Below, one piece after another: positions 3,349 to 62,083 of a DNA stretch of 64,000 nt. Source of the stretch: Lachnospiraceae bacterium (lineage in GTDB: Bacteria > Bacillota > Clostridia > Lachnospirales > Lachnospiraceae); the NCBI GenBank assembly GCA_009774175.1, contig VSNG01000002.1:11095-75094 (forward strand), written 5' to 3'. How positions within the stretch are numbered: the stretch's first letter is position 1; each line of letters opens with the position of its first letter. Made by a program: the position numbers and the translations under genes. Below the pieces are notes generated by a model. That model was not told the origin of the DNA. It searched no databases and saw nothing but the letters and a program-made list of their open reading frames with translations.

Positions 3349-4479
3349 TTATAAGTCCCTCTCGTCTACTTTTTGCAGTACATCCTCATACCGTCTGATA
3401 ATCTGCTCCCAGTCATACCGCGACACGTCCATGACGCAATCCAGCTCCGCAGGATCTTTTTCCATCACCTTTCCAAGCTTGTCCGCAAGCCCCTGCACAT
3501 CATCCGGCGCAAAATAGTATTGATCATCACCGATCAGCTGTCTGTGTCCCGGTATGTCCGAAAGAAGCGGATAGCATCCCGCCGCGGCCGTCTCAAGAAC
3601 TGCCATCGGACAGTTTTCAAAGTGACTCGCCGTAATATAGACAGACGCCTTTTGCAGGTAAGCAAGCTGCTCTTTACTGTTATTATCAATCCATCCGTGG
3701 AATCTCACGCAGTCCGCCAGTCCCAGCTCTGCCACTAATTGCTCCAGCTCTCCCCGATACGGTCCGTCCCCCAGAATATCTACCATCCATCCCGACCGGT
3801 CAACCGCCGCAACCGCACGGATCGCCGTCTGCATATTTTTATATTTCTGCATTCTCCCCATCAGAAGAATCCGCTTTTCTTTCTTATTTCGATCTGCAAT
3901 TTCACTGTATTTTTTTACATGAAGTCCGTTTGGTATCTGAATATAATTGCCTCCGTCATACTCCTTTTTCATAAGAGAAAGAAGATAATTTGACGGGGCG
4001 ATCACACCTTCCGACTCCTTTACAATTTTTCTCCAGGAAGGCCGCAAAAACCTGTGCATAATCTTCATGTACTTTTTGGAATTATATCCTTCCACGTCGC
4101 TTCCATGTGCCGTAATCACATAGGGAATCCCATATTTGTCCTTTACCCATTTGGCCGCTTCCCCCGTGGGTATCACGAAATGGGTATGGCAGACATCATA
4201 AGTATGGGATTTCATATGGCTCTTCATGAAATGTCTGACCGCCAGCAGATAGGAATATTGTTCCCACGGCATACAGGAGCTCTTTTTGCCGCGCAGACAC
4301 TTTAAACGATAAATTTTGACTCCCTGCTCCTCCTCATATGCCAAAAGACCATGGAATCCCATGGTCACTATCGTCACATCATGGCCCCGCTTCGCAAGCT
4401 GTATGGATATATCCCTGGATACCGGGGCCGCGCCGCCGCCAAGGGGCGGATATTCGTAATTCAACACCAATATTCTCAT
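3349..4479 (-). CDS. glycosyltransferase family 4 (GT-B)
   Basis: MRILVLNYEYPPLGGGAA N-terminus. FENCPMAVLETAAAGCYPLLSD near the C-terminus. Confidence 0.85.
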   Translation of the reverse strand: MRILVLNYEYPPLGGGAAPVSRDISIQLAKRGHDVTIVTMGFHGLLAYEEEQGVKIYRLKCLRGKKSSCMPWEQYSYLLAVRHFMKSHMKSHTYDVCHTHFVIPTGEAAKWVKDKYGIPYVITAHGSDVEGYNSKKYMKIMHRFLRPSWRKIVKESEGVIAPSNYLLSLMKKEYDGGNYIQIPNGLHVKKYSEIADRNKKEKRILLMGRMQKYKNMQTAIRAVAAVDRSGWMVDILGDGPYRGELEQLVAELGLADCVRFHGWIDNNSKEQLAYLQKASVYITASHFENCPMAVLETAAAGCYPLLSDIPGHRQLIGDDQYYFAPDDVQGLADKLGKVMEKDPAELDCVMDVSRYDWEQIIRRYEDVLQKVDERDL

Positions 4480-4509: not shown

Positions 4510-5454
4510 TCACTGTTCCTCGGTATTCTCCACAACTTCCCTAATATTATAGGGCAAATCCACATGCGTCCCGTAATATACCTTCATCATGATCTCGCTC
4601 ATCAGTCCAAATACAAACATCAGAACGCCCATAATCATAAAAAACACTGTCAGGATTGGCGGAATAATATTATTTGACATTTTATAACCCATCACAAATA
4701 ATACAATCGACCAAATGCCGCATATTCCCCCTAACATACAGAATAAAATGCCAAAAGCGCCGAGAACGTGCAGCGGTCTGGAAGCATATTTATTCCAAAA
4801 CCAGACGGAAATCATATCCACAAATCCCTTAATGGTTCTGTGCCAGTTATATTTTGTCTTACCCGACGTCCTTGCTCGGTGATTGACCACCATCTCCCCG
4901 ACCTTAAACCCTTTAATCTCCAATATCGCCGGAATAAAGCGATGCTGTTCGCCATACAGATTTATTCCTTTAAAGCATTCCCTTCGGTACACTTTTAAAG
5001 AACAGCCGCTGTCATGGATACCGTCATGGACCAGCAGATATCTAAGCGCATTCGCACCGCGGGAAATAAACCGCTTCATGAATGTGTCCTTGCGATTCTT
5101 TCGCCAGCCGGAAACCACGTCGTAGTGATTCTCCCGCATGTATTCCAGCATTTTGGGAATATCCGCCGGATCGTTCTGCCCGTCGCCGTCCAGCGTAGCG
5201 ATAAACTCCTTTGTTGCCGCCTTAATCCCCGCGTCCATGGCCGCCGTCTGCCCGAAATTTCTACGGAACTGAATATATTTAAGCGGTTTCAGGGTACGGC
5301 AGATCTGATCCGTTTTGTCCGAGGAGCCGTCATTGATAAAAATAATCTCATAGTCGTATCCTGCGTTCACACACATCCGCTTAATTTCCTGATGCAGCTT
5401 TTCCACGTTTCCTTCTTCATTATAAACCGGTACTACAACTGATACTCCAAGCAT
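4510..5454 (-). CDS. GT2 polyprenyl-phosphate glycosyltransferase (GtrB/CsbB/ArnC-like) with C-terminal membrane helices
   Basis: VSVVVPVYNEEGNVEKL, INDGSSDKT, TLDGDGQNDP, then hydrophobic C-terminal helices. The track ORF begins at a TTG (5484). ATG at 5454 has AAGGTGG 8 nt upstream and avoids overlap with the upstream gene. Confidence 0.8.
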   Translation of the reverse strand: MLGVSVVVPVYNEEGNVEKLHQEIKRMCVNAGYDYEIIFINDGSSDKTDQICRTLKPLKYIQFRRNFGQTAAMDAGIKAATKEFIATLDGDGQNDPADIPKMLEYMRENHYDVVSGWRKNRKDTFMKRFISRGANALRYLLVHDGIHDSGCSLKVYRRECFKGINLYGEQHRFIPAILEIKGFKVGEMVVNHRARTSGKTKYNWHRTIKGFVDMISVWFWNKYASRPLHVLGAFGILFCMLGGICGIWSIVLFVMGYKMSNNIIPPILTVFFMIMGVLMFVFGLMSEIMMKVYYGTHVDLPYNIREVVENTEEQ

Positions 5455-12259: not shown

Positions 12260-13207
12260 TTATCTGCTTTTCAATTTTTCAAACACAGATTTATTCACGT
12301 CAAGTCCCAGCATGGACTTGATCTTTACAATCAGCCCGTGGCGGTTTGCCGCCTTAAAATACCCCCTGTCAAAGGCCTCGTCCCACTGCACCTTCTCCCG
12401 ATGGCGGATGGGAAACCGCACTGGCCGCACCTCCTGTTTCATCCACTTGGGCGCCCGGAAGGTATGCGTCGCTTCTTCACTGAATCCAATATTAAACACA
12501 TGGCTCTCGCGGGGCGCAATATTCAGCTTATCATGTAAAATACCTGCATACATAAGCTGATAATCCCATGTATCAAATTCATGGCGGTACAGGGATTCGT
12601 ATTCCGCCATATAAACCCAGTATGCCTTTGTTGGCAGCACCCGCTTAAATACAGACGACTTTCGGTTTTCAGGAAGGGTCTTTAAATCATAATCATACAG
12701 CTTCCAGGCCCGCCGCCAGGAAGCCCAGCCCCAGATAAAGGGCACTTTGGAAAACAGATAATCCTCGTCGCCGTGATAACAGCTTGCATAGGGATTGTTC
12801 CCGCTGATCATCATAATCCGTTCATCATCCTTATAATACTCCAGCATTTCCTGACAGTAGCGGAAAAAGGTGGGATCGGGCACACAGTCATCCTCCAGTA
12901 TGATAGCCTGTTCCTCCTGCTCGAACACCCAGCTTAAGCCGCTGGAAATCCTTCTGCCGCAGCCCATATTATCCTGTGCATAATTTTTATGCACTTCACA
13001 GTCCCAGTCGATATGTTCTTCGATATAGCTCCGAACCGCGTCCACTTTTTCCTTTTCGCCCGGCACATGGCCTCTGGCCGCGTCGGCTACAATATATAAT
13101 TTCGGCGGCTTTGCTTCTCTGATCCTCTCAAAAACCTGTTTTGTGGTATCCAGACTCTTAAATACGCAAAAAGCAACCGCTGTCGTTAAAACAAAATTCT
13201 CCTGCAT
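12260..13207 (-). CDS. GT-A fold glycosyltransferase (GNT-I-like / HlpA-like family)
   Basis: DNMGCGRRISSGLSWVF and IILEDDCVPDPTFF (EDD motif). ATG at 13207 is preceded by GGGAGA and follows the stop of the upstream gene (13230). The 60 extra N-terminal codons in the track overlap that gene and are rejected. Confidence 0.6.
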   Translation of the reverse strand: MQENFVLTTAVAFCVFKSLDTTKQVFERIREAKPPKLYIVADAARGHVPGEKEKVDAVRSYIEEHIDWDCEVHKNYAQDNMGCGRRISSGLSWVFEQEEQAIILEDDCVPDPTFFRYCQEMLEYYKDDERIMMISGNNPYASCYHGDEDYLFSKVPFIWGWASWRRAWKLYDYDLKTLPENRKSSVFKRVLPTKAYWVYMAEYESLYRHEFDTWDYQLMYAGILHDKLNIAPRESHVFNIGFSEEATHTFRAPKWMKQEVRPVRFPIRHREKVQWDEAFDRGYFKAANRHGLIVKIKSMLGLDVNKSVFEKLKSR

Positions 13208-13229
13208 GTTTTTTCTCCCTCGCCATGAT

Positions 13230-15281
13230 TCACTCAAAACTGATCCTGTAAACCTTCCATCCCCTGTATGCATATTCCTGCTCTTCCAGCACATGGAAAC
13301 GCTGTCTGATCTCCTCCGCCAGCCCTTCTCCCGCACAGGGAAGATAGCAGTAGTTTTTCCTGCCTTCAAAATCTTTTGCCACCACATCCCAATCCGGCTC
13401 TTCGGCCAGCTGACAGGCCGTATAGATCTGCACGCCGTCTTCGAACACAGCCTCGCGCCTGCCCCTGTCAGGATTCCAATACTCCTGCTGCCGGTAATAC
13501 GCTCCGGTAACCGCCCCTACCTCGGCCATCCCGTCAAAATAATAGGTGTTCCCGCCCAAAGACGGAAAGAAAACGGTATCGCTCCCTGCAAGGGAATCCG
13601 CCAATGCCGCCCCCAGCGCATGTTCCAGCCAGAGCATCTGTCTGTTATAAATCATGCCGTCCCCCAGCGGATTGGTATCGGTCGTAATCATGACCGTACT
13701 CCCGGCGGAATATTGAGGAAAGCTCAGCCGCGTCACCGGATCAACGGTACAAAAGGAAGACACCGCCATCAAAACGGCCACACACCCTGCAAGAATCTGT
13801 CCATACAGATGTTCCAGCGCATAGGCCGAAAGCACAATTGCCATGCACATAAGCGCCGGCTGATTTGTTCCATTATAGCGCGGGTGATTTACCGTCTTAA
13901 AAATACAGCTAAAAGCCGTAAAGGCAAGCTGTCCGCACAAAATCGGGAAAAGTCTTTGCCAAACGCCCCTTTCCTTTCTGAGGATACAGACAGCGGCGCC
14001 GCCTACACAAAAAACCGTAAACAGCCAGTTAAACTGTAAAATATATAAAGCCTTTAGCTTCTCAAACACATAAGCGCCGTCTATATGAAGGCCTCCCACA
14101 CCGGCGCTCCAAGGCCCCAGAATCTTGTAAGTGGCAAGCCACAGAATACCCGGCAGAGTCATGGCATAATACCGTTTTGTCCGAAACATCCTTCCGACCC
14201 GCGTCCAGAAAGGCGCACCTGACTGATCAGTAAAATCCAGGACAACAAGGCTTACGCATGTCGTTGCGTAAATCAGAACGGCAGGTTCCTTGGTAAAACA
14301 AAACAGCATGGAAGCAATGAAAAAGTAAATCCACTGCCTCCGATACAAAAAGCACAGCATAATCACAAAAAAACAAAGACAGTAAAAGTCCAGACTGTGA
14401 TAGTATACCATGCCCAGCGTAAAAGGCGACCATGCATATACTGCCGCCGCAAGCGCATACACAAAATCCTGTTTCCCCGGCAGCATACACTTTATCATAC
14501 CATAAAAGGCGCATACACTGCAAAGAAACAGGATGATATTCATGCCAATCATTGCCGCCGCCGTATCCCCCGCAAGTATACGTCCCAGACAGTTCAACAT
14601 GCCATAGGTCTGCGCAATATGCCCGTAAGGAGCAAGGGAGCTGATGGAATCCGCCGCCCCTTCCCGACAGGCAAGATAATATAAAAGCCCGTCCCACTTA
14701 AACTGCACGGCGTCCGGCTCGATCAAAAGCAGGGCCGTCACTGCCAGCAAAAAAAGCAGCCACCGATGAGAGCCCGCCGCTCCCATGACGCGTTCCTTCC
14801 ATCCCCCCGACAGGAGCCCCTTTCCGCTGTCTTCATCTGTCAGAAGCTTTCCGCGCCGGTCTGTCGAAACCAACCGACTTTTTTCATCACCCGGCAAAGA
14901 CTGCCTGAACCGCCCCAAAAGTAGAAAACATCCTGCAAAATTGGCAAACCACAGAATATTCAGACAAAGCTTGCCATATTCTCCCTGTAAAAACAACGCG
15001 CCGCCGCCTCTTAAAAAAAGCAACAGGCAAAGAACCGCGCCCAGGCCTGATATCACCATAAGCTGCCTGCGAAAATCTTTTCCTGCAAGCACAAGGACAG
15101 AATAACAAAACAGCGTATAGAAAAGCATCGTCAGCAGTGAAAAAAGGAATCCGGCCTCACCAAAGGCGCCGCTTTTGTGATGAACCGTCAGTAATCCCCA
15201 CGCAAAATACCCGACAAGAACCGTCCCAATCCCCATCATTAATGAAACAATGCCCATTTGCTGTTTCATCCGTTTTATCAT
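13230..15281 (-). CDS. large polytopic membrane protein, GT-C-like, with soluble C-terminal domain
   Basis: 683 aa with many hydrophobic segments. Acidic/aromatic loop FKWDGLLYY. Non-hydrophobic tail of about 150 aa. GGGAGA before ATG 15281. Confidence 0.5.
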   Translation of the reverse strand: MIKRMKQQMGIVSLMMGIGTVLVGYFAWGLLTVHHKSGAFGEAGFLFSLLTMLFYTLFCYSVLVLAGKDFRRQLMVISGLGAVLCLLLFLRGGGALFLQGEYGKLCLNILWFANFAGCFLLLGRFRQSLPGDEKSRLVSTDRRGKLLTDEDSGKGLLSGGWKERVMGAAGSHRWLLFLLAVTALLLIEPDAVQFKWDGLLYYLACREGAADSISSLAPYGHIAQTYGMLNCLGRILAGDTAAAMIGMNIILFLCSVCAFYGMIKCMLPGKQDFVYALAAAVYAWSPFTLGMVYYHSLDFYCLCFFVIMLCFLYRRQWIYFFIASMLFCFTKEPAVLIYATTCVSLVVLDFTDQSGAPFWTRVGRMFRTKRYYAMTLPGILWLATYKILGPWSAGVGGLHIDGAYVFEKLKALYILQFNWLFTVFCVGGAAVCILRKERGVWQRLFPILCGQLAFTAFSCIFKTVNHPRYNGTNQPALMCMAIVLSAYALEHLYGQILAGCVAVLMAVSSFCTVDPVTRLSFPQYSAGSTVMITTDTNPLGDGMIYNRQMLWLEHALGAALADSLAGSDTVFFPSLGGNTYYFDGMAEVGAVTGAYYRQQEYWNPDRGRREAVFEDGVQIYTACQLAEEPDWDVVAKDFEGRKNYCYLPCAGEGLAEEIRQRFHVLEEQEYAYRGWKVYRISFE

Positions 15282-22098: not shown

Positions 22099-23091
22099 TT
22101 AAACATTATATATATCGCTCTTATAGCATCCCATATTCTCTCTGATCCAGGCAATCGTCTCCCTGATTCCCTCCTCGAACGTATATCGGGGTTCCCATGC
22201 GGTCAGTCTTTTGATCTTCTCGTTTGCGCCCAGCAGACGGTTTACCTCGCTCTTTTCCGGGCGAAGTCTCTGCTCATCGCAGACGATCTTCGCACTCGGA
22301 TTGATCTGCCTGATGATCTCATTTGCCAAATCCCCGATGGAAATCTCCTGCTGGGTCGCAATATTGATTTCCTCTCCGATGGTCTTGTCCGATTCCGCAA
22401 TCGACACAAACCCTGCCGCCGTGTCCTTCACATAATTAAAGTCTCTGGTGGGCGAAAGCGATCCCAGCTTAATCTCTTTTTGTCCCGCCAGAAGCTGGGT
22501 AATAATCGTGGGAATCACGGCCCTTGCCGACTGTCTCGGGCCGTATGTATTAAACGGCCTGACAATCGAAACCGGTAAATTAAAGCTTCTGTAAAAGCTC
22601 TCCGCCAGCCGATCCGCTCCTATTTTAGTGGCGGAATAGGGGGACTGACCCTGATAAGGATGTTTTTCGTCAATAGGCACATACTGCGCCGTGCCGTACA
22701 CCTCCGAGGTGGACGTGACCATAATCCGCTCTGTTCCCAGATCACGCGCGGCCTGCAGCACGTTTAAGGTGCCCTTGATATTCGTATCCACATAGGAATC
22801 GGGCGAATGGTAGCTGAACGGAATAGCGATTAATGCCGCCAGATGGAATACGCCGTCCACGCCCTTCATCGCTTCCCGCACCCCGTTGGGATCACGGATA
22901 TCCCCCGAAAACACTTCAATTTCCCTCATTTTATCCTGCGGCAGCGTATCCAGCCACCCCCAGGTATTAAAGGAGTTATAATAAGCAAACGCCTTTACCT
23001 GATATCCCTTTTCTACCAGCAGTTCGGTCAGATGACTTCCGATAAAGCCGTCCGCTCCTGTCACCAACACTTTTTTCATAATGCTCCTCAT
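22099..23091 (-). CDS. legB: NAD-dependent sugar-nucleotide 4,6-dehydratase, LegB-like (SDR family)
   Basis: VLVTGADGFIGSHL Rossmann motif, STSEVYG, YSATK (YxxxK). The FAYYNSFNTWGWLD segment is as recalled for LegB-type enzymes. ATGA overlap with neuC at 23088..23091. Sits in a NeuC/NeuB/NeuD context. Confidence 0.7.
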   Translation of the reverse strand: MRSIMKKVLVTGADGFIGSHLTELLVEKGYQVKAFAYYNSFNTWGWLDTLPQDKMREIEVFSGDIRDPNGVREAMKGVDGVFHLAALIAIPFSYHSPDSYVDTNIKGTLNVLQAARDLGTERIMVTSTSEVYGTAQYVPIDEKHPYQGQSPYSATKIGADRLAESFYRSFNLPVSIVRPFNTYGPRQSARAVIPTIITQLLAGQKEIKLGSLSPTRDFNYVKDTAAGFVSIAESDKTIGEEINIATQQEISIGDLANEIIRQINPSAKIVCDEQRLRPEKSEVNRLLGANEKIKRLTAWEPRYTFEEGIRETIAWIRENMGCYKSDIYNV

Positions 23092-24269
23092 TCCTGCACT
23101 GTTTTTCCATGCAAATCGTAAAAAGTTTTCTTTAAATAAATCCGGTCATGCAGCAGAAAGTCTTTACAGACAGCGGCTATTTTCCTGCTTGTCCCCTCCG
23201 CTTCATAGGGATTATGCACCGGCTCCTTTTTCAGTCGTTCCTTCATGGCCGCCGCCTCTTCCATGGCTTTCCTGATATCTCCACGCTCCGCCTCACAGTG
23301 TATCACACTTTCGGCCGCCGTTCTACCCCGCTGTCTGTCTCCGATATTTACCGTCGGCACCTGAAAAGACGGCGCCTCGATGATTCCGCTGGAAGAATTT
23401 CCGATCACCATCCTGCTGTATTTCACCGCGCTCAGGTATCTGCGCATCCCCAGCGAAGCAACGGCATACACGTTACCGCGGACCGCCGCATATTGGTCTA
23501 TCATCCGGTTAATGATGTGGCCGCCCGCATCGGCGTTTGCCTTGGTGATAATATATTTCATAGTAAAATCATCCAACGCATCCAAAAGTGCCTGAAACTG
23601 GCTCTCCACACTTCCATCTTCCAAAGTAACAGGGTGAAAGGTCACAACCGCATAGGGGTCCCCCAATGGAAAATCCAGCGACGCTTCCAGTTCTGTCTTT
23701 GTCATCAACGGCACTTTTCTGATATTTTCCACACCAAGCGCCCCCACCGGAAAAACCCTGTCAGGAGATTCTCCCAACTGGATAATGCGGTTTGCATATT
23801 CCTGCGTGGAAGGAAAGTGCAGATAGCTGAGCTTTGTAATAGAATGGCGGATAGCGTCATCCACCGCCCCTTCCGTAATCTCGCCGCCGTGAAGATGCGC
23901 GATAGGTATGCGGGCATTCATTGCCGCCAGACACACCGCAAGCGTCTCATACCGATCCCCCAGCACAACAAGCATGTCCGCCCGGTTCTCCTCAAAATAT
24001 CCGCCAAACGCTTCCAAAGCTTCAGCCATCGTCCTGCTGACCGCCGCCGCTGTATCTCCTTTTTCCAAAATCGGTATTTTTACCGCAATGGGAAATCCAT
24101 CGTCAAGAATCTCCCGATAGGTATTTCCGAACTCCTCCGACAGGTGGGCGCCAGTCACCAACAGGGAAATTTCCAAGTCTCTATCCGCATAAAATCTCTC
24201 AATCAGCGGCCTTAAGATGCCATATTCGGCTCTTGTCGCCGTCAATACAGCGATCCTTTTCTTTGCCAT
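23088..24269 (-). CDS. neuC: UDP/GDP-sugar 2-epimerase (hydrolysing), NeuC/LegG type
   Basis: RIAVLTATRAEYGILRPL, DRYETLAVCLAA, IAHLHGGE. The track start at 24275 is TTG. ATG at 24269 has GAGG 7 nt upstream. Confidence 0.85.
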   Translation of the reverse strand: MAKKRIAVLTATRAEYGILRPLIERFYADRDLEISLLVTGAHLSEEFGNTYREILDDGFPIAVKIPILEKGDTAAAVSRTMAEALEAFGGYFEENRADMLVVLGDRYETLAVCLAAMNARIPIAHLHGGEITEGAVDDAIRHSITKLSYLHFPSTQEYANRIIQLGESPDRVFPVGALGVENIRKVPLMTKTELEASLDFPLGDPYAVVTFHPVTLEDGSVESQFQALLDALDDFTMKYIITKANADAGGHIINRMIDQYAAVRGNVYAVASLGMRRYLSAVKYSRMVIGNSSSGIIEAPSFQVPTVNIGDRQRGRTAAESVIHCEAERGDIRKAMEEAAAMKERLKKEPVHNPYEAEGTSRKIAAVCKDFLLHDRIYLKKTFYDLHGKTVQE

Positions 24270-24271
24270 TT

Positions 24272-25270
24272 TCAAACCTCTATCAATTCGTCCTGCGCAA
24301 AATCCCTGACCGCCGTTTTTCCAACAACGTCATTCCAACGCATAGGGGAAATGCCGTTTCCCGGTCTCTTAGTCGTAAGATTGTCCTCCGTAAGCCGCTC
24401 CCCCGCCCTGATGGGACATTTAGCCACGATGCTTTTGCGCGCAATTTCCGTATTTTTCTTCTCCGATTCGGAGGGTCTCTTGACGCCATCTCCCAGAGCC
24501 GATTCTATGTTTCTGACCGCTTCTACCATGGCCCGGAGTTCTGCGGGCTCCAGGCTGGCTTTGTGGTCCGGCCCTTCCATCGTTCTATCAAGCGTAAAAT
24601 GTTTCTCGATCACCACGGCGCCCAAAGTCGCCGCCGCAATCGGAATCTCAATGCCCTGCGTGTGATCCGAATATCCCACGGGCACGCCAAGCTCCCTTTC
24701 AAGGGTCGCCATCGCCCGCAGATTTACATCCCGATAGGGCGTCGGATACTCTGTATTACAATGAAGCACGGTAATGTCGCCGCTGCCATATTCCCGCAGC
24801 ACCGCCACGGCCTCTCTTATCTCTACAAGGGTACACATGCCAGACGAAATGACAACCCGTTTCCCACACCTTCCCACTTCCCGCAAATAGGGGTAGTTGG
24901 TCACCTCCCCGGAGGGTACTTTTATGATTTCCAGGCCGCACTGTATCAAATAATGCAGGCTGTCAACATCAAAGGGTGTAGACAAGAACATAATGTTCTT
25001 TTCTCTGCACCGGGCAATCAGCTGTTCATGCATATCCGGCGATAATTCCAGTTTTTTAAGCATGTCATACTGGGACTCCTCCTGTCCCGTCGTCTCCATC
25101 TGATAAGCCGCCTTTTTTGCGTCCCTGCTCACCAGCGCCTCCGCTTGAAACGTCTGGAACTTCACGGCGTCCGCGCCCGCTTTTGCCGCCGCATCCACTA
25201 ACTTTTTTGCGATTTCGATATCTCCGTTATGGTTGACGCCCGCTTCGGCGATGATAAATATTCTGTTCAT
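24272..25270 (-). CDS. neuB: N-acylneuraminate / N,N-diacetyllegionaminate synthase (NeuB/LegI family)
   Basis: IIAEAGVNHNGDIEIAKKLVDAAAKAGADAVKFQTF. C-terminal SAF-like KSIVAKCPIRAGERLTEDNLTTKRPGNGISP. ATG at 25270 forms an ATGA overlap with the upstream stop. Confidence 0.9.
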   Translation of the reverse strand: MNRIFIIAEAGVNHNGDIEIAKKLVDAAAKAGADAVKFQTFQAEALVSRDAKKAAYQMETTGQEESQYDMLKKLELSPDMHEQLIARCREKNIMFLSTPFDVDSLHYLIQCGLEIIKVPSGEVTNYPYLREVGRCGKRVVISSGMCTLVEIREAVAVLREYGSGDITVLHCNTEYPTPYRDVNLRAMATLERELGVPVGYSDHTQGIEIPIAAATLGAVVIEKHFTLDRTMEGPDHKASLEPAELRAMVEAVRNIESALGDGVKRPSESEKKNTEIARKSIVAKCPIRAGERLTEDNLTTKRPGNGISPMRWNDVVGKTAVRDFAQDELIEV

Positions 25271-25902
25271 AACTGCTTTACCTTTTCCCCGCTCCATGCG
25301 ATGCTGTGCGCTTTCACATCACGGCGGATGGTGGTTCCCGCTCCGATCGTGCTTTTATCCCCGATGGTTGTGCACTGGACAACCGTTGCATTGGCCCCCA
25401 CCAGCACGGATCTGCCCACCTTTACCTCCCCGCACAAAACCGTTCCCACCGATATATGGGAAAAATCTCCTACCTGACAGTCATGCTCCACAATCGCGCC
25501 CGTGTTGATAATACACATATCCCCTATCACTGCGTTTACATTGATAACGGCTCTCTTGCCGATAAAACTGCCCTCTCCGATTCGTGCGCCGGCAGAAAGA
25601 ATCGCGGAAGGGTCGCAGACTATCGGAAGCCGGAAACCGATCTGCTTTAAGGTACCAAAGAGCTTTTCCCTGACATCCGACTTCCCCATATAGCCGATTC
25701 CCACAGCGGCGTTTCGGATGCCGCTTTGAAAAAGCCGCTCCAGATCCTTATCGCCGCCAAGCACCGGATAGCGGCTTCCCTCTTTTGCGCATACCGCGTC
25801 ATTGACCACATAACCCGCTATCTCATATTCCTGTTGTCTCTCCAGAACGTCCGCAAGACTTTCCGCGTGTCCGCCCATGCCGAGAATAATTATCTTTTCC
25901 AT
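25267..25902 (-). CDS. NeuD/PglD/LegH-family sugar N-acetyltransferase (left-handed beta-helix)
   Basis: IIILGMGGHAESLADVL N-terminal Rossmann-like part. Hexapeptide repeats IGEGSFIGKRAVINVNAVIGDMCIINTGAIVEHDCQVGDFSHISVG. Confidence 0.85.
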   Translation of the reverse strand: MEKIIILGMGGHAESLADVLERQQEYEIAGYVVNDAVCAKEGSRYPVLGGDKDLERLFQSGIRNAAVGIGYMGKSDVREKLFGTLKQIGFRLPIVCDPSAILSAGARIGEGSFIGKRAVINVNAVIGDMCIINTGAIVEHDCQVGDFSHISVGTVLCGEVKVGRSVLVGANATVVQCTTIGDKSTIGAGTTIRRDVKAHSIAWSGEKVKQL

Positions 25903-27690
25903 TTATTTATCCCTAATCATCAGCTCTTCATACTCTTCCTTTGCAAGAAAGGGGTACATGTCCTGCAAGGCAGGCGTAAGCATTTTACCGTTTTCGTCCA
26001 ACCGTGACATCACCTTTGGCGTCACCGGGTCGTCAAGCCGCTGTTCAATCTCAAGCAGACATCTCGTCTCACAAGTTGTCAGCCATCTGACCGCTTCCTC
26101 CACTTCTTCATTAGAAGCGCACTTACGGTATGCATAGCCGAAGGTTTCCGCCACCTTCCGAAATTCCGGGAAGCTTACGCCGGTATCGGGAGTACATCCG
26201 ATATAGGCCCCTTCAAAGAAATTTTTGCTTGTCTGCCTGATGGCTCCGTAACCGTCATTGGAAAATACGACCACATTCACCGGAAGATCGTTCTGCACAA
26301 TGGTCTGCAATTCCTGCAAATTCATCATAATGCTGCCGTCCCCGGTAATACAGTACACCTTTCTCTTCGCCGCCACAGCCGCGCCGATGGCCGCAGGAAT
26401 GTCATATCCCATGGAGCCGCAGGTATAGTTCGTCATAACCCGCTGGCCGGCATACTGCACGCCGATCTGGAGCTTGGCCGTATTAGCCGTATTATTTCCC
26501 AGCGCCAGAATACTGTCCCTTTCCTCATACTGTCGAAATATCTTCCAGAAATAATAGGAATTGACCCGCTCCTTTGGCTCGATATCCTCTGCGCCTTCAT
26601 AGGGCGTAAATCTTTCCTTCAATCTGTCGCAGTAGGCAAGCCATTCTTCCGGCGCCTGAACCCGGCAATCCTCTTCCAGCATTTTTCCAATAAACGCGCC
26701 CACGTCGGCATGAACAAACTTTTCGATGCAAAGCCCCGGCTTCCTGCTTTCCTCCGCGTCCGCATCCACCATCACGATCCGCGCCCCCGGCGCAAATCCT
26801 TCCAGATTAAATCCTGTCTGCCGAAATCCCAGACTGTTCCCCATGGCCAGAATCACGTCCGCGTTCTGTAAAATAAAATTCCCGGTTCTCGGCCCCACGT
26901 TCCCGGAATTGCCGTAATAGAGCGGGTGCTCTGCATACAGATTGTCCGCAACCCAGGCGCCGCCGATCACGGGAATCCCCATCTTATTAATGAACTGCTC
27001 AAACGCGTTCCTGCAATGACTGCTGATAATGCCTGAACCCGCCAGAATACACGGTCTTTTCGCACAGCGAAGCATCCCAAGCACATCCTGTATCTGCGCC
27101 TGATCCGCCTGCGGCACATCGCTGATAAATGCTTCCTCTGGATACAGATCCGCCTCTTCCACTCTGGCGTTCTGGATATCCTGCGGAATATCCAGCCACA
27201 CGGGCCCTCTTCTGCCATCCATGGCAATATGAATGGCTTTTATAAGCTCCCGCCTCACCGCCAGCGGATCGGTCAGCATCACGGCATATTTCGTCATATT
27301 TTTCACTGTGGGAATAATCTCGAACTCCTGAATGCCCCGATACCGCAGCTTAAGTCCCGATTTGGGAACGGAAATCTCATATCTGACCTGGCCGGACAAA
27401 ACAACCATGGGCAGGCTGTCCTGCCACGCTCCCATTACGCCCGTCAGGGTATTGGTCGCCCCCGGCCCGGAGGTAACGCAGACCGCCGCCGGCCTGCCGC
27501 TGTATCTGGCGTAAGCCTCCGCCGCCATGGCGCATGCCTGCTCGTGATGGTTAAAATATTTGTGCATCCCTTCACACACAAGCAGCGCATTATCCAGGTG
27601 CATGGCGCCGCCGCCCACCACGGCAAAGCAGTCTGTAACGCCGTATTCGATTAACGTGTCCATAACAATGTCCGCTACTCTTTTTATCAT
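25903..27690 (-). CDS. thiamine-diphosphate-dependent enzyme, acetolactate-synthase large-subunit-like
   Basis: VGGGAMHLDNAL, GPGATNTLTGV. ThDP motif ITGDGSIMMNLQELQT...VVFSNDGYGAI. 595 aa. Confidence 0.85.
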   Translation of the reverse strand: MIKRVADIVMDTLIEYGVTDCFAVVGGGAMHLDNALLVCEGMHKYFNHHEQACAMAAEAYARYSGRPAAVCVTSGPGATNTLTGVMGAWQDSLPMVVLSGQVRYEISVPKSGLKLRYRGIQEFEIIPTVKNMTKYAVMLTDPLAVRRELIKAIHIAMDGRRGPVWLDIPQDIQNARVEEADLYPEEAFISDVPQADQAQIQDVLGMLRCAKRPCILAGSGIISSHCRNAFEQFINKMGIPVIGGAWVADNLYAEHPLYYGNSGNVGPRTGNFILQNADVILAMGNSLGFRQTGFNLEGFAPGARIVMVDADAEESRKPGLCIEKFVHADVGAFIGKMLEEDCRVQAPEEWLAYCDRLKERFTPYEGAEDIEPKERVNSYYFWKIFRQYEERDSILALGNNTANTAKLQIGVQYAGQRVMTNYTCGSMGYDIPAAIGAAVAAKRKVYCITGDGSIMMNLQELQTIVQNDLPVNVVVFSNDGYGAIRQTSKNFFEGAYIGCTPDTGVSFPEFRKVAETFGYAYRKCASNEEVEEAVRWLTTCETRCLLEIEQRLDDPVTPKVMSRLDENGKMLTPALQDMYPFLAKEEYEELMIRDK

Positions 27691-41181: not shown

Positions 41182-43852
41182 TCATAGCAAGTCTTCCTGT
41201 TTTCTCCTCCGCATCCGTAATCCGCCGCCGGTTCTGTTTTTCAGACATTCCACACCAATAAGCAGTATTCCGATCAAAGACGCCAGAAAGCCCATTTTCT
41301 GCCAAAGCGGGTCGTATACCACCCTGACGTGGTGCATCCCCTCCGTAAGCTTTACCGCGGTAAATCCGATGTTTGCCCGTTCTGTGGAAACCTCAGCCTG
41401 ATCCACATACACCTTCCATGCCCTGTCAAAGGGGATGCTCAGGAAAAGCCAGCCGCCGGACGCATTAATATCTCCTTCCAGATAATTATCCCCATACTCC
41501 AAATTGGTCAGCGCGCGCCGCTGTAATACCGCAAGCGCCTCCCTCGTCTGTTCCATTTCATACCAGTATACGGACATGCTGTCAATATGATACGCCGTGC
41601 CCTGTGCCAGTTCCAAAACGATTTCCTGCTCGGCTTTTTCGATCTTAACCAGCTGATCCTTCTGACCCGTGGTATAAATATTATTTGCATTATGAACCGC
41701 CAGCGTTTTATCGGCAACACGGATTTCTCCTCCTTCTGCCGTTTTTGCCTCCGTTCCTTCCAGATAAAGATATAGTTCCCCTTCCTCAAAATTAAAGGTT
41801 GACAGCTCCTCCTTTATGTGCACAATAATCCTGGCGTCTTTTCCCGCAGTCAGACAACCGTCTTCCTCTTCTATATTGACGTATTCTGTCTCATAATGCA
41901 GCGCCGTAACCGCACTCTCCGTCTCCTCCTCTTTGGAAAGCAGACTTCCCCGCGGATTTTCCAGCACGAGCCCTCTCATCATGGCGCTCTGCCTTTCAAG
42001 CGGCGGCATCCGCAAAAAATCTTCTTCCGAAAGCGCCGACGCATATTGCACCCCAAAGGGCAGCCAGCTGGCATTTTCCACCAATTCCCCATTTTTCTCA
42101 TAGTATTTCACACCTAAAAGCGACTGCAGCGCCTCCCGCCCGTCCAAACCGGCAAGATAATTGATTGTCCGCATTGCCGGAGATATTTTCAAAGCGTCAT
42201 AAAAGGACCAGATATTGCCGTTCATAATACTGTAATATCCCCAGCATCCCCTGTATCCCTGTAGCAGCGCGCCCTGATTTGCCTGCTCCTGCCTGTCAGT
42301 CCGATACCATTCCTCTGTCTGTTCCGTCTCCTCCACAGTCAGCGCAACAGCTTCCATCTCGTCCCTCGACATAAAGGAAAGATACAGTTCCTGTCCGCCA
42401 ATCTGATAAGGCCCCTCCAAAAAGATCATATTCAGCATTAAATTAACAAGCAGCGCTGCCACCAGCCTTTTCCTGCGTCTTACGCCATCCGAAAGGAGCG
42501 TCCAGATACAAAACGCCGTCACCCCGACACAGGCAACCGTTCTGAGTTTATCCTGCTGCACCATGTAGTGATAGCTCATGGAGCAGACAAAAACAGCAAT
42601 GGCGGATGCCATTCTCCTTTTACCCACCTTCTCCTCTCCATGCTCAATAAATAAAATCACCGCATAGGCGATGCCTAAATAGATGGCATACACCCATCTT
42701 GTATTGGGATAGGAAAAGCCGTTCATCATGCTCCACACAAAGGGACTGGCGTAAGCGACCGTCAAAAGCGCCGAGTAAACGCGTTCTCTTTTATTATGAC
42801 CGAGCCAGCACCGGATGACGGCCAGAAACGCAGCAAAGGAAATACCCAGAGACACCGCAAACATGGCAGATTTCTTATGTATAAACAGATTTTCAAGCTT
42901 TAGCAGAAGCTCCTGCACCGTCCAATACAGATACGGGCCTCCGATAATACCCGTTTCCATTCTTGCGCTCAAAAGAAATCCCCTGATCACGGGAAACAGT
43001 ATCGCGCCGGAAAGCAAAATTCCCATCAGATAGTATTTGGAAACGCAAAGCGCTTTTCGGGGAAGTCCCCGCAAATTCTTTGGATACCTGATTAAATATT
43101 CTGCCAGCGCATAGACAAAAACAAGAATTGTTTGAATATACAGAAAATAAAAACTACAACATGCCTGTAACGCAATGAGGAGCGAGAGTTTTACCCCCCC
43201 CCCTCATTTTTTCGTCATTTTCAGTCAAACTCCCCGCGGGAATAAATTTTTCCACCTGTATCAGCAGCAGCGGAAAAATATAGGCCGCATTCAAAATTTG
43301 ATAAAACTGTAACCCATTTGGCAGGGCAAACGCGGAAAAAACATAAAGAACTGCTCCCAGTACAGACAAAACCGTATCTTTTCCATGTCTTCTGCAAAAC
43401 AAAAGCATGGCGGCTCCGCAAAGCCAGAGCCGCAGAATCAGGGTAAATTCATACAGACGAACCGCGCCCTTCCCCACCGCGAATACGGAAAGCAGATTAA
43501 GCGGATCTCCAAATCCGTTAAAATTCAGCGGAGAAATCACATCGCTTCCCAGGCCTATGGAAAAATCATACAGGCGAACGCTTCCTGTAGAAAGGAAGCG
43601 CCGCAGCAGCTTCCCAAAATATAGAAACGTCGGATAATCCTGTCCCGGCGCATCCACATTATAAATAAATGATCTGCCGTTTATTACGTGAAATAATATG
43701 CCCACCCCGAAAAAAACAAAAAACAGTGCACTATACCATCCAAAGGGCAGCCATTTTTCTCTTTTGCTCTCTATCTTCATATCAGATTCTATCCTCTCAC
43801 TTTCCATTGCCTGGGCTCTCTCGAACCTCCGCCCCTTAAACGCTTCTCGCAC
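41182..43852 (-). pseudogene. YfhO-family GT-C glycosyltransferase, split into two frames by a G10 tract (phase-OFF or frameshifted)
   Basis: The N-terminal fragment (43154..43852) carries a YfhO-like start (DAPGQDYPTFLYF, YDFSIGLGSDVISPLN, GDPLNLLSVF). The C-terminal fragment (41182..43074, TTG start in the track) ends with the YfhO-like FLSIPFDRAWKVYVDQAEV...HHVRVVYDPLWQKMGF. The 630-codon frame is open back to the tract. Likely true starts are ATG 43780 or 43807. Confidence 0.8.
43194..43203 (-). repeat. G10 homopolymer (C10 on plus strand) at the frame break of the YfhO-family gene; part of the 16-nt element AGGGGGGGGGGTAAAA (43189..43204)
   Basis: Counted directly: c at 43194-43203, flanked by a (43193) and t (43204). 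The 16-mer is identical to 147..162. Confidence 0.9.
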
Positions 43853-57916: not shown

Positions 57917-59806
57917 CTACTCCGTCCCGGAAGCCATATGGCTTTTTCCGTAAACCGTCAGATCCGCAAGCACCGGCTCCGACCCGTCAAACAGCCTGCC
58001 GTCCTGAGTATACCAGCCTTCAAACACCCGGCCCCCATCCACATCCCCCGGATCGCCAATGGGCATGCTCTCAATGGTTTCTCCCCGGATCACGCTCACA
58101 TACATATCCTTCGTAAATTCTTCTGCAATAAAGTGAACCGTACACAGCTCCTTTTTCTCAATCCAGACTTCGTCAAGAAATTCCTTTCTGGCCGTCAGAA
58201 AATCCCGGATCCTCCAGACTTCCGCATTATAATCGAGGTCGTCCCCATATATTTCCTTCCATCGGATCCGATCCATATTTGCAGATACATAGATTTCCGA
58301 TACATACTCCTCTATTTTGCTCTCCTGAATCACCTGAAAATAATCAGAGAAAAACTCCTGGTAACACCTGGACACCGCCTGTCTGAAATCAGGATGGGTA
58401 TTCAGATACCAGAAAAGCGTGGTACTGCCGTCCCTCTGGGTCAGATAGCACAGATCCCGCGTCGTCCCGTCAATTCCGTACAATCTGCCGTAGGCCTTGT
58501 CATAATCCCACACAGGGCCGGCAAACAGGCCGGCATCCTGCGGCTTATAGAAGAAGGAGCTGGTAGCGCCGCCTCCCTTGTTCTTGCTCAGCTCCTCCAC
58601 AATATATTTCCGGGCGTAGGACTCTAGATCCAGATAGGCCGGATAGGAAAGGCCCGTATCAGGATTGACGCCGTCCGTTTGCGTGACGGCTTTCTCCATT
58701 GCGTTCATCAGACCGCTGATATAGTCTACTTCCGCCCGGGACGCATATTTCGGGCTTTTGATGGTATACTGGTCGCCAAGGAGAGTTGTCTCAAATCCGC
58801 TGACCTCCTCATTGTACTTATCCGACACATCCCGTTCCAGCAGATAACCACCCGTCAGATCCACCGGTTCTGCAGCCAGCTCTACTCCCTTTTTCATTCC
58901 CGTGTCAAAACGGGCAAGCTCTTTCATATTCTTATTGCGCTTTTTATTCTCCTCCCCCAGATCGTTTATGGGAATCCGCTCCGAATCTATCTCCACCTTT
59001 TCACATAGCTGATACATGCCGTGATACCTGTGGTTGACATAGAGGTCTATATACTGCGATTCGGGAGAGCCCTCCATCCCTGCGGCAATTCCCATCTCAT
59101 AGGTGATTTTATTGCGAATATAGGAATGGTCCTCCACATTGCTTAACAGAATCCAGTTATCCGCGCTTCCCATCCCAAACAGGTCCGTCCTGTTTTTCAG
59201 CCGGATGCCGTAGGATTTCTTCGGATAGAACCAAGTGGAATTTCCACGCCCTGAAATGCGTTCCAGCTTATCCACGCACACGATGCTCCCGCCCGCGTCA
59301 AAAAGAACGATTTTCCCTCTCTCCTCATAATCCTTGTCCGCATCCAGCATTTCCATGGAACCGCTCTGCGTCTCAAGAAACAGGGCGGGCAGATTGGCGG
59401 AATGCATAATCACCATATTGCGCCCGGCAATTCGGTTCCCGGCCCTGTCATAAAAGCTCAGCTCATAGGGTTCGTCGCATACAAGGGGCGCGATATCTTC
59501 GCCGCTTTTCAAAGAAATTTCCTCTTCTCCCCTGCGAAAGACCGCCCGGTCAGCTCCTGTAAAGGAAATTTTCACATTTCCGGCATTGGCATAGGAGGGC
59601 AGGAAGAGATAGTCCGTCTGTTCCTGTGTAAAACAGCGGATTTCCTGTTCCGGCGCGGTACTGCCGACAACGAAGCGCATACTTTCCAGACAGTCCCCGT
59701 CAGCCTGCCTTTTTTCATATGCCGCCCTTTCCCCCGCCGCTGCCGCAGCGATCATCAGTGTAAGCAATACCCCAAGTATTGCGTATCGTTTCGTCCTGTA
59801 TGTCAT
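57917..59806 (-). CDS. CotH kinase-family protein, signal-anchored, copy 1
   Basis: GRGNSTWFYPKKSYGIRLKNR, ADNWILLSNVEDHSYIRNKITY, YIDLYVNHRYHGMYQLCEK. N-terminal hydrophobic anchor AILGVLLTLMIAAAAA. C-terminal FEGWY repeat-like module. Confidence 0.85.
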   Translation of the reverse strand: MTYRTKRYAILGVLLTLMIAAAAAGERAAYEKRQADGDCLESMRFVVGSTAPEQEIRCFTQEQTDYLFLPSYANAGNVKISFTGADRAVFRRGEEEISLKSGEDIAPLVCDEPYELSFYDRAGNRIAGRNMVIMHSANLPALFLETQSGSMEMLDADKDYEERGKIVLFDAGGSIVCVDKLERISGRGNSTWFYPKKSYGIRLKNRTDLFGMGSADNWILLSNVEDHSYIRNKITYEMGIAAGMEGSPESQYIDLYVNHRYHGMYQLCEKVEIDSERIPINDLGEENKKRNKNMKELARFDTGMKKGVELAAEPVDLTGGYLLERDVSDKYNEEVSGFETTLLGDQYTIKSPKYASRAEVDYISGLMNAMEKAVTQTDGVNPDTGLSYPAYLDLESYARKYIVEELSKNKGGGATSSFFYKPQDAGLFAGPVWDYDKAYGRLYGIDGTTRDLCYLTQRDGSTTLFWYLNTHPDFRQAVSRCYQEFFSDYFQVIQESKIEEYVSEIYVSANMDRIRWKEIYGDDLDYNAEVWRIRDFLTARKEFLDEVWIEKKELCTVHFIAEEFTKDMYVSVIRGETIESMPIGDPGDVDGGRVFEGWYTQDGRLFDGSEPVLADLTVYGKSHMASGTE

Positions 59807-59829
59807 GTCCGCCTCATACTCTCCGTCAT

Positions 59830-61722
59830 CTACACTCCATGACTTTTTCCATACACGATAATATCTTCAAAAATCGGGACAGTACAGTCAAATACCTCGC
59901 CGTCCTCCGTAAACCAGCCGTCAAACATCTGGTCACCGCTCACTTTTCCCGGCTCGCTTCCCGGCAGCCTCTCAAGCGTCTCTCCCGCAGCCACACTCAC
60001 ATACCGTTCCTCGCCGGTCTCCGAAACAAAGGTCACTGTGCGCAGTTCTCCCTGCCCCGTCCAGACTTCATCCAGAAACTGTTTTCGTTCCAGCAGAAAG
60101 GTTTTGATCCGCTCCAGTTCATACGGATAATCCAGAGGGGCGCTGCCTTCCTCTTTCCATCTGATCTGATCCATAGCAATGGAAGAAAGAATCTCCTGCG
60201 CATACTCGTCCACCTTCTCCTCTGCAGCCTCCTGCATATAATCCGAGAAAAAATCCTCATAGCAGTCAGACACCGCCTCTCTGAAATCCGAATGCGCATA
60301 CAGCCTCCAGAAAAGCGTAGTGCTGTTGGTATCCCGCAGCATCAGATAGCACAAATCCCGGGACGATTCGTTAATTCCCGTCAGGCTTGCGTAGGCCTTA
60401 TCATAATCCCATACGGGGCCGGCAAACAGCTTTGTGCTGATCGCCTCCTGCGGCTTATAAAAAAAAGAACTGGTGGCCCCGGCACCATTATTTTTTGTCA
60501 GCTCTTCCAAAATATACTTCTGCACGAAGGAATGCAGATCAATATACTCCGTATAGTGCATCCCGGTATCGGGATTAATACCGTCTTCGGCAAGCAGCGC
60601 CTTTTCCATATCGTTTATGAAGGCGCTGATATAATCCACCTGAACCTCTGACGCATGGGCGGGCTCCTTTATCGTATACAGATCTCCCAGATTCCCCGAG
60701 ACAAAGCCGCTGATCTCCTCCCAGTATTTTTCCGGCACATCCCGTTCCAGAAGATACCCGCCCGTCAGATCATCCGGCTCCGTGACAAGGGCCACTCCCT
60801 TTTTTTCCTCCGTCTCAAAGCGTCCGCATTTATCAAGCTCCCCGTTAAGCCTTTTGTTCTCTCCCTCCAGATCCGCTATGGGGACTCTCTGTTCGTCGAT
60901 TTCCACCTTCTCGCAAAGCTGGTACATCCCATGATAAGTATTATTGATATACAGATCAATATACTGCGATTCCGGCGAACCCTCCATTCCCGCCGCAACG
61001 GCCATGTCGTAGGTAATTTTATTGCGGATATAGGCGGGATCTTCCACATTGCTTAACAGAATCCAGTTGTCCGCGCTTCCCATGCCGAACAGATCCGTCC
61101 TGTTTTTGAGCCGGATCCCGTAGGACTTCTTCGGATGCGCCCAGGTGGAGTTTCCCCGCCCCGAAATCCGATTAAGCCTGTCTGCGCACACCACCTTCCC
61201 CGCCGCATCAAACAGGACAATTCTGCCCTTTTCCTCATAGCTTTTATCCGCATCCAGCATTTCCATGGAGCCACTGTCCGTTTCCAGAAAAGCGGCCGGC
61301 AGATTGGCGGAATGCATAATGACCATACACTGCTCGGCCATTCTCTCGCCCTTCCTGTTGCAAAAATACATACGGTACTTCTCATGATACGCAAGGGCCC
61401 CGATGCTCTCGCCGTTTGTAAACGGCACCTCTGATTTTTCGTCGGCAAAGACAACCTGATCCGCCCCCACGAAAGAAATCCTGACATCGTCTGCCTCCGC
61501 ATAGGACGGTAAAAACAGATACTGCACATTTTCCCTCTCGTCGGTATAACAGAAAAGCTTCTGCTCCGATGAGGAATTACCGATTACAAAATAAAGGTTT
61601 CCCATATAGTTCCCGCTTGTCTGAGCCTGTCTGTATGCCGCTTTTTCCATAAGCGCCACAGTCATAGCCAGAAGAACGGGCAAAATCCACAGCAAACCGC
61701 GCCGTTTTATCCTATCCGTCAT
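59830..61722 (-). CDS. CotH kinase-family protein, signal-anchored, copy 2 (tandem paralog)
   Basis: GRGNSTWAHPKKSYGIRLKNR, ADNWILLSNVEDPAYIRNKITY. N-terminal anchor LLWILPVLLAMTVAL. C-terminal FDGWF module. The start is uncertain (ATG 61722 or 61734). Confidence 0.8.
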   Translation of the reverse strand: MTDRIKRRGLLWILPVLLAMTVALMEKAAYRQAQTSGNYMGNLYFVIGNSSSEQKLFCYTDERENVQYLFLPSYAEADDVRISFVGADQVVFADEKSEVPFTNGESIGALAYHEKYRMYFCNRKGERMAEQCMVIMHSANLPAAFLETDSGSMEMLDADKSYEEKGRIVLFDAAGKVVCADRLNRISGRGNSTWAHPKKSYGIRLKNRTDLFGMGSADNWILLSNVEDPAYIRNKITYDMAVAAGMEGSPESQYIDLYINNTYHGMYQLCEKVEIDEQRVPIADLEGENKRLNGELDKCGRFETEEKKGVALVTEPDDLTGGYLLERDVPEKYWEEISGFVSGNLGDLYTIKEPAHASEVQVDYISAFINDMEKALLAEDGINPDTGMHYTEYIDLHSFVQKYILEELTKNNGAGATSSFFYKPQEAISTKLFAGPVWDYDKAYASLTGINESSRDLCYLMLRDTNSTTLFWRLYAHSDFREAVSDCYEDFFSDYMQEAAEEKVDEYAQEILSSIAMDQIRWKEEGSAPLDYPYELERIKTFLLERKQFLDEVWTGQGELRTVTFVSETGEERYVSVAAGETLERLPGSEPGKVSGDQMFDGWFTEDGEVFDCTVPIFEDIIVYGKSHGV

Positions 61723-62083
61723 GTTCCCTGCCATCCTTTTCCAGATCCCGCACACGTTTATCCAAAATGGCAAGCTCCTGAATCAGCGTCCGAAGCTTGC
61801 GGTTTTGTCTGGAAGCAATCGAGGTCAGCGACAACAGGATCAATACAATAAAACCGATGCAGAAAAGAAACAGGCCGTTCATATTGTCCTGAATGCCGAA
61901 AAGCCGGATGGTACGCGTCAAAAGCTCCGGCACCACCACCAGGATCCCCATAACGGCTCCCGCCACCAGCCATAAAAGCGTATACTTTAAATTGAGCGCC
62001 TTCTGTTTCAAAAAATACAGGATCACTATGAAATAGCTGATCACCACAATGATCAGCGTTATGCGCAAATGACTCGGTATCAT
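61712..62083 (-). CDS. DUF2304-family small membrane protein
   Basis: 123 aa with four hydrophobic helices and a charged C-terminal tail (RKLRTLIQELAILDKRVRDLEK). ATGA overlap with the upstream GT2, which is the usual GT2+DUF2304 pairing. Confidence 0.65.
   Translation of the reverse strand: MIPSHLRITLIIVVISYFIVILYFLKQKALNLKYTLLWLVAGAVMGILVVVPELLTRTIRLFGIQDNMNGLFLFCIGFIVLILLSLTSIASRQNRKLRTLIQELAILDKRVRDLEKDGREHDG

Follow-up and report, generated by a model that had tools for sequence, protein, structure and literature searches.

A G10 run in a YfhO-family glycosyltransferase gene of a Lachnospiraceae bacterium: a probable slipped-strand contingency switch in the OFF state

Background

What is known of surface-glycan phase variation in gut bacteria comes mainly from the invertible promoters of Bacteroides and the repeat-based switches of pathogens. 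This report concerns a run of ten G residues in a gene for a YfhO-family glycosyltransferase of the GT-C type, on the minus strand of a 64,000-nucleotide (nt) stretch of DNA (hereafter the window) from a Lachnospiraceae bacterium (assembly GCA_009774175.1, contig VSNG01000002.1, positions 11,095 to 75,094). The run was originally predicted, from the window alone, to be a slipped-strand contingency switch that is OFF in this sequence. Comparison with public assemblies now supports that prediction through length polymorphism, recurrence of different lengths on identical haplotypes, retention of the run in orthologs and purifying selection on the gene, and the G10 run is probably a hypermutable switch of this kind, captured in its OFF state.

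The closest described systems are the poly-G contingency genes of Campylobacter jejuni, which act in capsule, lipooligosaccharide (LOS) and flagellin glycosylation, and which have phage receptors among the structures they switch (PMC3025981, PMC8355987, PMC5808241, PMC3068675). As at the present locus, intragenic G runs of about 8-12 nt occur in several surface-glycan genes of one organism, a change of one nucleotide turns a gene ON or OFF, and the bacterium is associated with the gut of its host. Unlike the present bacterium, C. jejuni is a Gram-negative member of the Campylobacterota, and the enzymes it switches are of types other than YfhO-like GT-C proteins. Measurements of switching rates and phenotypes exist for C. 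jejuni, whereas the evidence here is comparative only. The phase-variable LOS glycosyltransferases of Neisseria and Haemophilus (PMC5084427, PMC5320596) likewise carry a homopolymer within the open reading frame (ORF) of a glycosyltransferase, with several independent switches per genome producing combinations of glycoforms, but they belong to another phylum and habitat and have other folds, being cytoplasmic GT-A and GT-B enzymes rather than membrane GT-C enzymes. Nearer in lifestyle is the poly-G switch of a Bifidobacterium breve sortase pilus, for which slippage was demonstrated by maximum-depth sequencing (PMC9187656); this too is a Gram-positive gut commensal with an intragenic G run that turns a surface structure ON and OFF, although it is an actinobacterium and the product is a pilus protein rather than a glycan enzyme.

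With respect to the enzyme itself, the nearest relatives are found in the CsbB-GtcA-YfhO systems of teichoic-acid glycosylation in B. subtilis, S. aureus and L. monocytogenes, which share the PF09586 family, the GT-C architecture, a large extracytoplasmic domain and a comparable length (PMC5836110, PMC8035078). These systems have not been reported to be phase-variable, and the word 'phase' is absent from the 2021 review. The likeness holds here at the level of the Pfam family only: no adjacent CsbB or GtcA was identified, and the gene lies within a large locus for polysaccharide and nonulosonic acid. The gtrABC operons for O-antigen glucosylation in Salmonella and Shigella have a decorating enzyme of the GT-C type with phase-variable expression, and they switch epigenetically (Dam/OxyR) at the promoter and not by a repeat in the coding region. 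The present locus resembles them in that its second G run lies in a GtrC-like gene of family PF19528 (GT_STM0557_N), and differs from them in having coding-region repeats where they have a promoter-level epigenetic switch. Full-text literature searches returned no description of repeat-mediated phase variation for YfhO enzymes or Lachnospiraceae. The kind of switch proposed is a classical one, as in Campylobacter, Neisseria and Haemophilus, and it is the case of a YfhO enzyme in Lachnospiraceae for which no earlier description was found.

The G run and its reading frames

The run occupies 43203..43194 on the minus strand (C10 on the plus strand, 43194..43203), where the minus strand reads ...GACGAAAAAATGA-G10-TAAAACTCTCGC, and it encodes Gly codons 194-195 of the intact YfhO protein, directly after a disordered loop. 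Read with G9 or G12, the whole gene covers 41182..43780 on the minus strand and gives a protein of 865 or 866 amino acids (aa), respectively, from an ATG at 43780 (MKIESKREKW...) that is conserved among orthologs. With G10 the upstream frame reads ...DEKMRGGGKTLAPHCVTGML and then stops at a TAG at 43156..43154, so that the N-terminal fragment (43154..43780, minus strand) has 208 aa from the conserved ATG and ends in ...MRGGGKTLAPHCVTGML; other possible starts lie further upstream at ATG 43807 and GTG 43852. The downstream frame (41182..43203, minus strand) is uninterrupted between the run and its stop at 41182 and encodes the remaining transmembrane helices, a beta-rich extracytoplasmic domain and a C-terminal helix. 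It includes a 630-codon ORF (41182..43074) and is open back to a TGA (43204..43206, minus strand) that abuts the run on its 5' side. A TAA abuts the 3' side (43191..43193, minus strand) and serves as the stop in the G8 (...MRGG*) and G11 (...MRGGG*) states.

Counted in silico from GTG 43852, a G9 or G12 tract creates a single ORF of 889 or 890 codons, and G8, G10 and G11 all terminate at codons 219-232. From the conserved ATG, the reading frames are those expected of a contingency locus, with 865/866 aa for G9/G12 and 195-208 aa for G8, G10, G11 and G14. The positions given originally for the TAG and for the TGA that bounds the downstream frame were correct in every detail, and the continuous ORF of about 865-890 codons foreseen for G9 or G12 agrees with the 889/890 codons found and with homolog lengths of 845-866 aa. 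A stem-loop is predicted at 43174..43208 on the minus strand (-31.9 kcal/mol, z = -2.78), in which the G run pairs with downstream pyrimidine-rich Leu/Ser codons (CUCUCGCUCCUC). Similar pyrimidine-rich sequence is found 3' of the run in yfhO orthologs.

The mechanism proposed for the locus would begin with the gain or loss of single G residues, most likely by slipped-strand mispairing at replication. The in-frame lengths G9 and G12 would then yield the full enzyme of 865/866 aa, and the out-of-frame lengths G8, G10, G11 and G14 would yield an N-terminal stub of 195-208 aa, in which the extracytoplasmic domain, the C-terminal helix and the greater part of the transmembrane core would be missing; the G10 state is presumably fully OFF rather than leaky. 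When made, the enzyme would be expected to act like the characterised YfhO proteins, transferring a sugar from a polyprenyl-phosphate donor onto a polymer of the wall or surface, and the acceptor may be a cell-wall polymer. Switching would be stochastic and frequent inside a single population, and may be a means of varying the surface glycan, for instance as protection from phage or host antibody.

Family and fold of the interrupted enzyme

That the gene at 41182..43780 is a YfhO-family (PF09586) GT-C glycosyltransferase is indicated by profile matching and by its predicted fold, and the family assignment made originally is upheld on both counts. The G9 reconstruction matched Pfam PF09586 with 270.4 bits (cut-off 28.5, 5e-80) in one stretch that runs over the junction, from residue 54 to 856 and from profile position 17 to 833 of 835. 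An AlphaFold2 model built with 18 homologs (pLDDT 78.5, pTM 0.80) places a helical membrane core at residues 6-455, a beta-rich domain at 557-822 and a helix at the C-terminus (825-862), and thus shows the multi-helix membrane core and extracytoplasmic domain that define the GT-C fold. In a Foldseek comparison with the PDB the best matches were all GT-C enzymes (AftD, ArnT with undecaprenyl phosphate, STT3, AftA and Pmt4), the top ones having a probability of 1.00 and TM-scores of 0.3-0.46; a PDB sequence search with the ortholog profile gave no match, so that the fold comparison alone was informative. In the segment NVDAPGQDYP, a candidate for the conserved acidic (DxD-like) motif of an early extracytoplasmic loop, D43, Q47 and Y49 do not vary among the 18 homologs and D48 hardly does. 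The run is situated just past a low-confidence loop (residues 180-187), in what the alignment shows as a variable linker between two conserved blocks, and from this position the G10 product would keep about five helices and lose all else. An equivalog assignment to PgfM1/PgfM2 was considered and rejected, as the NCBIfam models match only the C-terminal 130-145 residues and score far under their cut-offs.

Tract lengths in public assemblies

Tract DNA was retrieved by exact-protein look-ups in public assemblies, and the loci obtained are designated by L numbers; exact-pattern scans of genome_contigs and metagenome_contigs for the tract with its flanks returned no match. The 90% identity cluster of the YfhO protein has 202 members, in which fragments and full-length forms occur together. 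As the original prediction had anticipated for related genomes, tract length varies: in DNA with identical 25-nt flanks the run is G8 in L025, G9 in L006-L011, G10 in L001-L005, G11 in L030-L034 and G12 in L012-L016. A further class of 195 aa proteins was considered as G8 and rejected, since it consists mostly of contigs that end inside the run, and the sole true G8 is that of L025.

Contigs per length were counted by exact look-ups of the protein expected for each tract length. The OFF length G10 was by far the most common, with about 1,170 contigs (864 with the 208 aa protein and 306 with a 217 aa version), followed by G11, also OFF, with about 293 (209 + 84). The ON lengths were represented by at least 53 contigs for G9, in several alleles including the window's own, and at least eight for G12. 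A single contig falls to G14 (OFF), a length inferred from one protein, and no contigs were found for G6, G7, G13 or G15. OFF lengths therefore dominate, with about 95% of assemblies out of frame; the ON fraction of about 4% is a lower bound, in that a full-length protein needs a longer contig and the counts are split among alleles. The full-length G9 protein that had been foreseen for this very allele is present, exact, in public data. The two halves are not separate conserved genes, given that full-length G9 and G12 proteins exist and that orthologs without the run are single genes.

Four independent Logan contigs (L026-L029) end after exactly ten G, which is suggestive of the de Bruijn branch point expected where G10 and G11-or-longer tracts are mixed in one sample. 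Annotations of public metagenome-assembled genomes (MAGs) record the gene as a pair of 'YfhO family protein' fragments, one such pair being MCI9065372.1 and MCI9065371.1.

Different lengths on identical haplotypes

The comparison of haplotypes covered -820..+2400 nt around the run (3,220 nt), of which 1,870 nt are common to all loci. One haplotype, with zero differences over the 3,220 nt, was found with G9 (L006, L009, L011), G10 (L003) and G12 (L012-L016), and the same zero-difference haplotype, that of L003, was also found with G11 (L030) over 1,870 nt. Three other haplotypes were each found with two lengths: G10 in the window and L005 and G11 in L034; G10 in L001 and G11 in L031 and L033; and G10 in L004 and G9 in L007 and L008. 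Among 17 sequences there are only 11 variable sites in 3.2 kb, excepting a replaced upstream segment (described below). Selection of loci by exact protein identity favours identical backgrounds, and the occurrence of four lengths on one background still stands. Lengths also differ within one study series (G9, G10 and G12 in BATT21-1), and the ERZ134104xx samples have G10 and G11 on one haplotype. The tract changes much more rapidly than the sequence around it, and the presence of G9, G10, G11 and G12 on identical haplotypes shows that the length changes are recent and repeated.

Retention of the run, selection and alternative explanations

Beyond this group the run was followed in more distant orthologs. 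It is G9 and in frame in L017 (76% protein identity), G11 and out of frame in L036 (76%), G10 in L018 (62%), where the gene is split into 210 + 623 aa, and G11 in L019 (56%), where it is split into 204 + 648 aa. In the AGA+G11 context of L019, G10 or G13 is needed for in-frame reading, and a repair by G9/G12 that had been considered for this locus is wrong given that context, as is the downstream dN/dS value calculated from it for L019. An uninterrupted run of G9-G11 thus occupies the same codon in five lineages (the window's and those of L017, L036, L018 and L019) with diverged flanks, and in all five a TAA stands directly 3' of it, so that one of the two OFF frames is terminated at once. The ratio of nonsynonymous to synonymous substitution (dN/dS) was calculated against L017 and L018. 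Upstream of the run it is 0.10 and 0.18, respectively, and downstream 0.15 and 0.14; these low values on each side indicate that both halves of the gene are under purifying selection. Synonymous sites are near saturation in the same comparisons (dS = 1.0-1.8), and the third positions of the run, if neutral, would be expected to have been interrupted long since; that the run is nonetheless kept in orthologs is the pattern that selection for mutability at a contingency locus would be expected to leave. In three lineages the run has been lost or interrupted (P0003, AGC GGC GTA; P0009, G4AG5; P0007, G5AG4), and all three are in frame. Taken together, the kept run, the purifying selection and the in-frame lineages that have no run argue against both a decaying pseudogene and a conserved programmed frameshift.

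The alternative that survives best is that of recoding, in which the G10 and G11 states are leaky, RNA polymerase slippage or ribosomal frameshifting gives some full-length enzyme, and tract length tunes its amount. Out-of-frame lengths dominate and yet the downstream ORF is under purifying selection, as this explanation would have it, and the run could be a slippery sequence within the predicted stem-loop. A programmed frameshift would however be expected to have a fixed, conserved out-of-frame layout, whereas relatives are in frame and in both OFF frames (G10 and G11), in-frame G9 and G12 alleles occur on the same haplotypes, and the lineages with no run are all in frame. Furthermore, the sole predicted hairpin includes the run itself, where known frameshift stimulators sit 5-9 nt downstream. 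As the main explanation recoding is unlikely, and it can coexist with a switch at the level of DNA.

It is less likely still that the gene is a decaying pseudogene, being lost from a species in which the frameshift is common and the rare in-frame alleles are ancestral leftovers. The out-of-frame majority would fit such decay, as would the out-of-frame state of the closest species representatives L036, L018 and L019. Against it, no second disabling mutation was found in about 670 downstream codons in any lineage examined, and the downstream dN/dS is that of a constrained gene (0.14-0.15). Nor would decay account for recent and repeated length changes on identical haplotypes, for an uninterrupted run at one codon in five lineages despite near-saturated synonymous sites, or for lineages that lack the run and keep the gene intact.

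Long G runs are error-prone on several platforms and many Logan contigs break at the run, from which it might be supposed that the count of ten is a homopolymer error of sequencing or assembly and that the true gene is intact. Such an artefact is very improbable. The exact G10-type fragment was recovered on about 1,170 contigs of independent NCBI, ENA, JGI and Logan assemblies, some at 18-58x coverage, with a distinct G11 class of about 293, and reproducible, discrete length classes are not expected of random error. In addition, no other gene of the window is broken at a homopolymer, and its five A8/T8 runs sit within intact ORFs. Least probable of all is a split enzyme whose separately made halves assemble into an active two-subunit transferase. 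Both fragments do match YfhO, and the gene is divided beside a disordered inter-helix loop. Against this, the first start codon available to the downstream half is TTG 43074, which lies about 43 codons beyond the run and lacks an evident ribosome-binding site; the N-terminal fragments of the G10 and G11 states have different ends, and relatives with no run make single polypeptides.

Some observations weigh against the contingency switch itself. All related sequences are metagenome assemblies or MAGs and not clonal isolates, and a mixture of lengths within one population is suggested only by the contig ends of L026-L029. The OFF share of about 95% is high, and G9 is much rarer than G11 though each is one step from G10; this pattern requires selection against the ON state, an expansion bias or a detection bias. 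The frequency of such runs is also no greater than chance allows: the window has two G10 runs and no G/C runs of 7-9, and dinucleotide-preserving shuffles gave a mean of 0.54 G10 runs, with at least two in 14 of 100, so that two runs are not significant. All G/C runs of six or more in the window are G on the coding strand. The case for the run mattering accordingly comes from the comparative data and not from run frequency. Finally, the genetic surroundings of the gene offer no GtrA-type flippase among ORFs of at least 170 aa and no CsbB-type GT2 identified as such.

The surrounding glycan locus

All genes of the window are on the minus strand and form a single large surface-glycan locus of more than 64 kb, with yfhO in its middle, between genes for a CTP_transf_3 cytidylyltransferase on one side and an HMGL-like protein on the other. 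The locus encodes many glycosyltransferases of families GT1, GT2 and GT4 and one of GT11. It also encodes two DegT aminotransferases, two UDP-GlcNAc 2-epimerases, NeuB, a PglD-like acetyltransferase, nucleotidyltransferases and an MBOAT protein, together with two CotH kinases, two ABC exporters, a methyltransferase and two proteins resembling asparagine synthase. Several GT2 genes are present in the window and one follows the PF19528 gene, and none was identified as CsbB-like. Among ORFs of at least 170 aa no GtrA-type flippase was found, and a polyprenyl-phosphate donor and a wall-polymer acceptor are therefore putative for the YfhO enzyme. In known multi-component systems of transmembrane glycosylation, partner genes can be encoded elsewhere (PMC8035078).

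A nonulosonic-acid pathway (NeuB, a NeuC-like epimerase, a PglD-like acetyltransferase, a dehydratase and a thiamine pyrophosphate (TPP) enzyme) and two adjacent CotH-kinase-family genes are found at 22099..27690 and 57917..61773 on the minus strand. Two long ORFs with no Pfam match (12260..13387 and 13230..15281, minus strand) overlap by 158 nt, which may stem from an over-extended start or from a further disrupted gene, and the overlap has no G/C run. In L004, L007 and L008 the upstream neighbours of yfhO (GT1, a 457 aa protein and CTP_transf_3) are swapped for MobA/MobL, an adenine glycosylase, a Trans_reg_C regulator and TnpW, and the breakpoint falls about 85 nt ahead of the start codon that corresponds to ATG 43780 of the window. 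The swap looks like a mobile-element insertion or replacement, and both G9 and G10 occur in this context.

Other G runs in the locus and in relatives

The second G10 run of the window (152..161, minus strand) falls in codons 13-16 of a 574 aa membrane glycosyltransferase of family PF19528, which is ON here. The family is named DUF6056 in the local Pfam copy and GT_STM0557_N, which is GtrC-like, in precomputed annotation. The gene starts at ATG 198..196 and extends past the left end of the window, and is complete in L020 (7929..9653). In L023, from the same SRA series, this run is G9 and the frame from the ATG reads MQETVIENGNLNRGGVKAIGDMR* and is out of frame; the flanking sequence is identical between the G9 and G10 backgrounds over 5,100 nt. 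A third G10 run lies about 3.3 kb past the left window edge (L020 11297..11306). It splits a GT1-like gene of about 394 aa, leaving a 216 aa stub, and G9 or G12 restores an ORF of 394/395 aa. All three runs of the strain have the common context A-G10-TAAA (window 43191..43204 and 149..162; L020 11296..11310), in unrelated genes and different frames.

Runs at other places in the gene were found in YfhO homologs of other Lachnospiraceae MAGs. Three of these are out of frame (L035, G10, 4117..4126; L050, G9, 3787..3795; L055, G10, 4730..4739), and in each a change of one nucleotide restores the frame; in-frame runs occur in L041 (G8, 3657..3664) and L042 (G9, 3661..3669). Assembly contigs often end at or near G runs, as in L022 and L024, 5 nt past the second run, and in L036, about 50 nt past its own.

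Since at least two other glycosyltransferase genes of the locus carry equivalent runs, the strain could make several glycoforms in combination. A bolder proposal is that at least three independent poly-G switches (the YfhO GT-C, the PF19528 GtrC-like GT-C and the GT1-like gene) within about 70 kb are part of a lineage-wide, selected set of switches, which would produce up to eight surface glycoforms by chance in a common gut Firmicute and would owe its OFF excess to ongoing selection in the gut, for example by phage or IgA. This proposal is tentative, its chances falling somewhat short of even.

Significance

The run in yfhO adds a population-supported case of probable contingency switching in an understudied bacterial group, in which the two-fragment annotation of public MAGs hides a conditionally expressed enzyme. 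If the three-switch proposal is true, the set would be a Gram-positive commensal counterpart of the contingency gene sets of Campylobacter and Neisseria. If the yfhO switch operates within hosts, its tract would serve as a simple marker, readable from sequence, of the selection acting on an abundant commensal's surface, and the lengths counted in metagenomic reads could be compared with phage load, antibody coating or host state.

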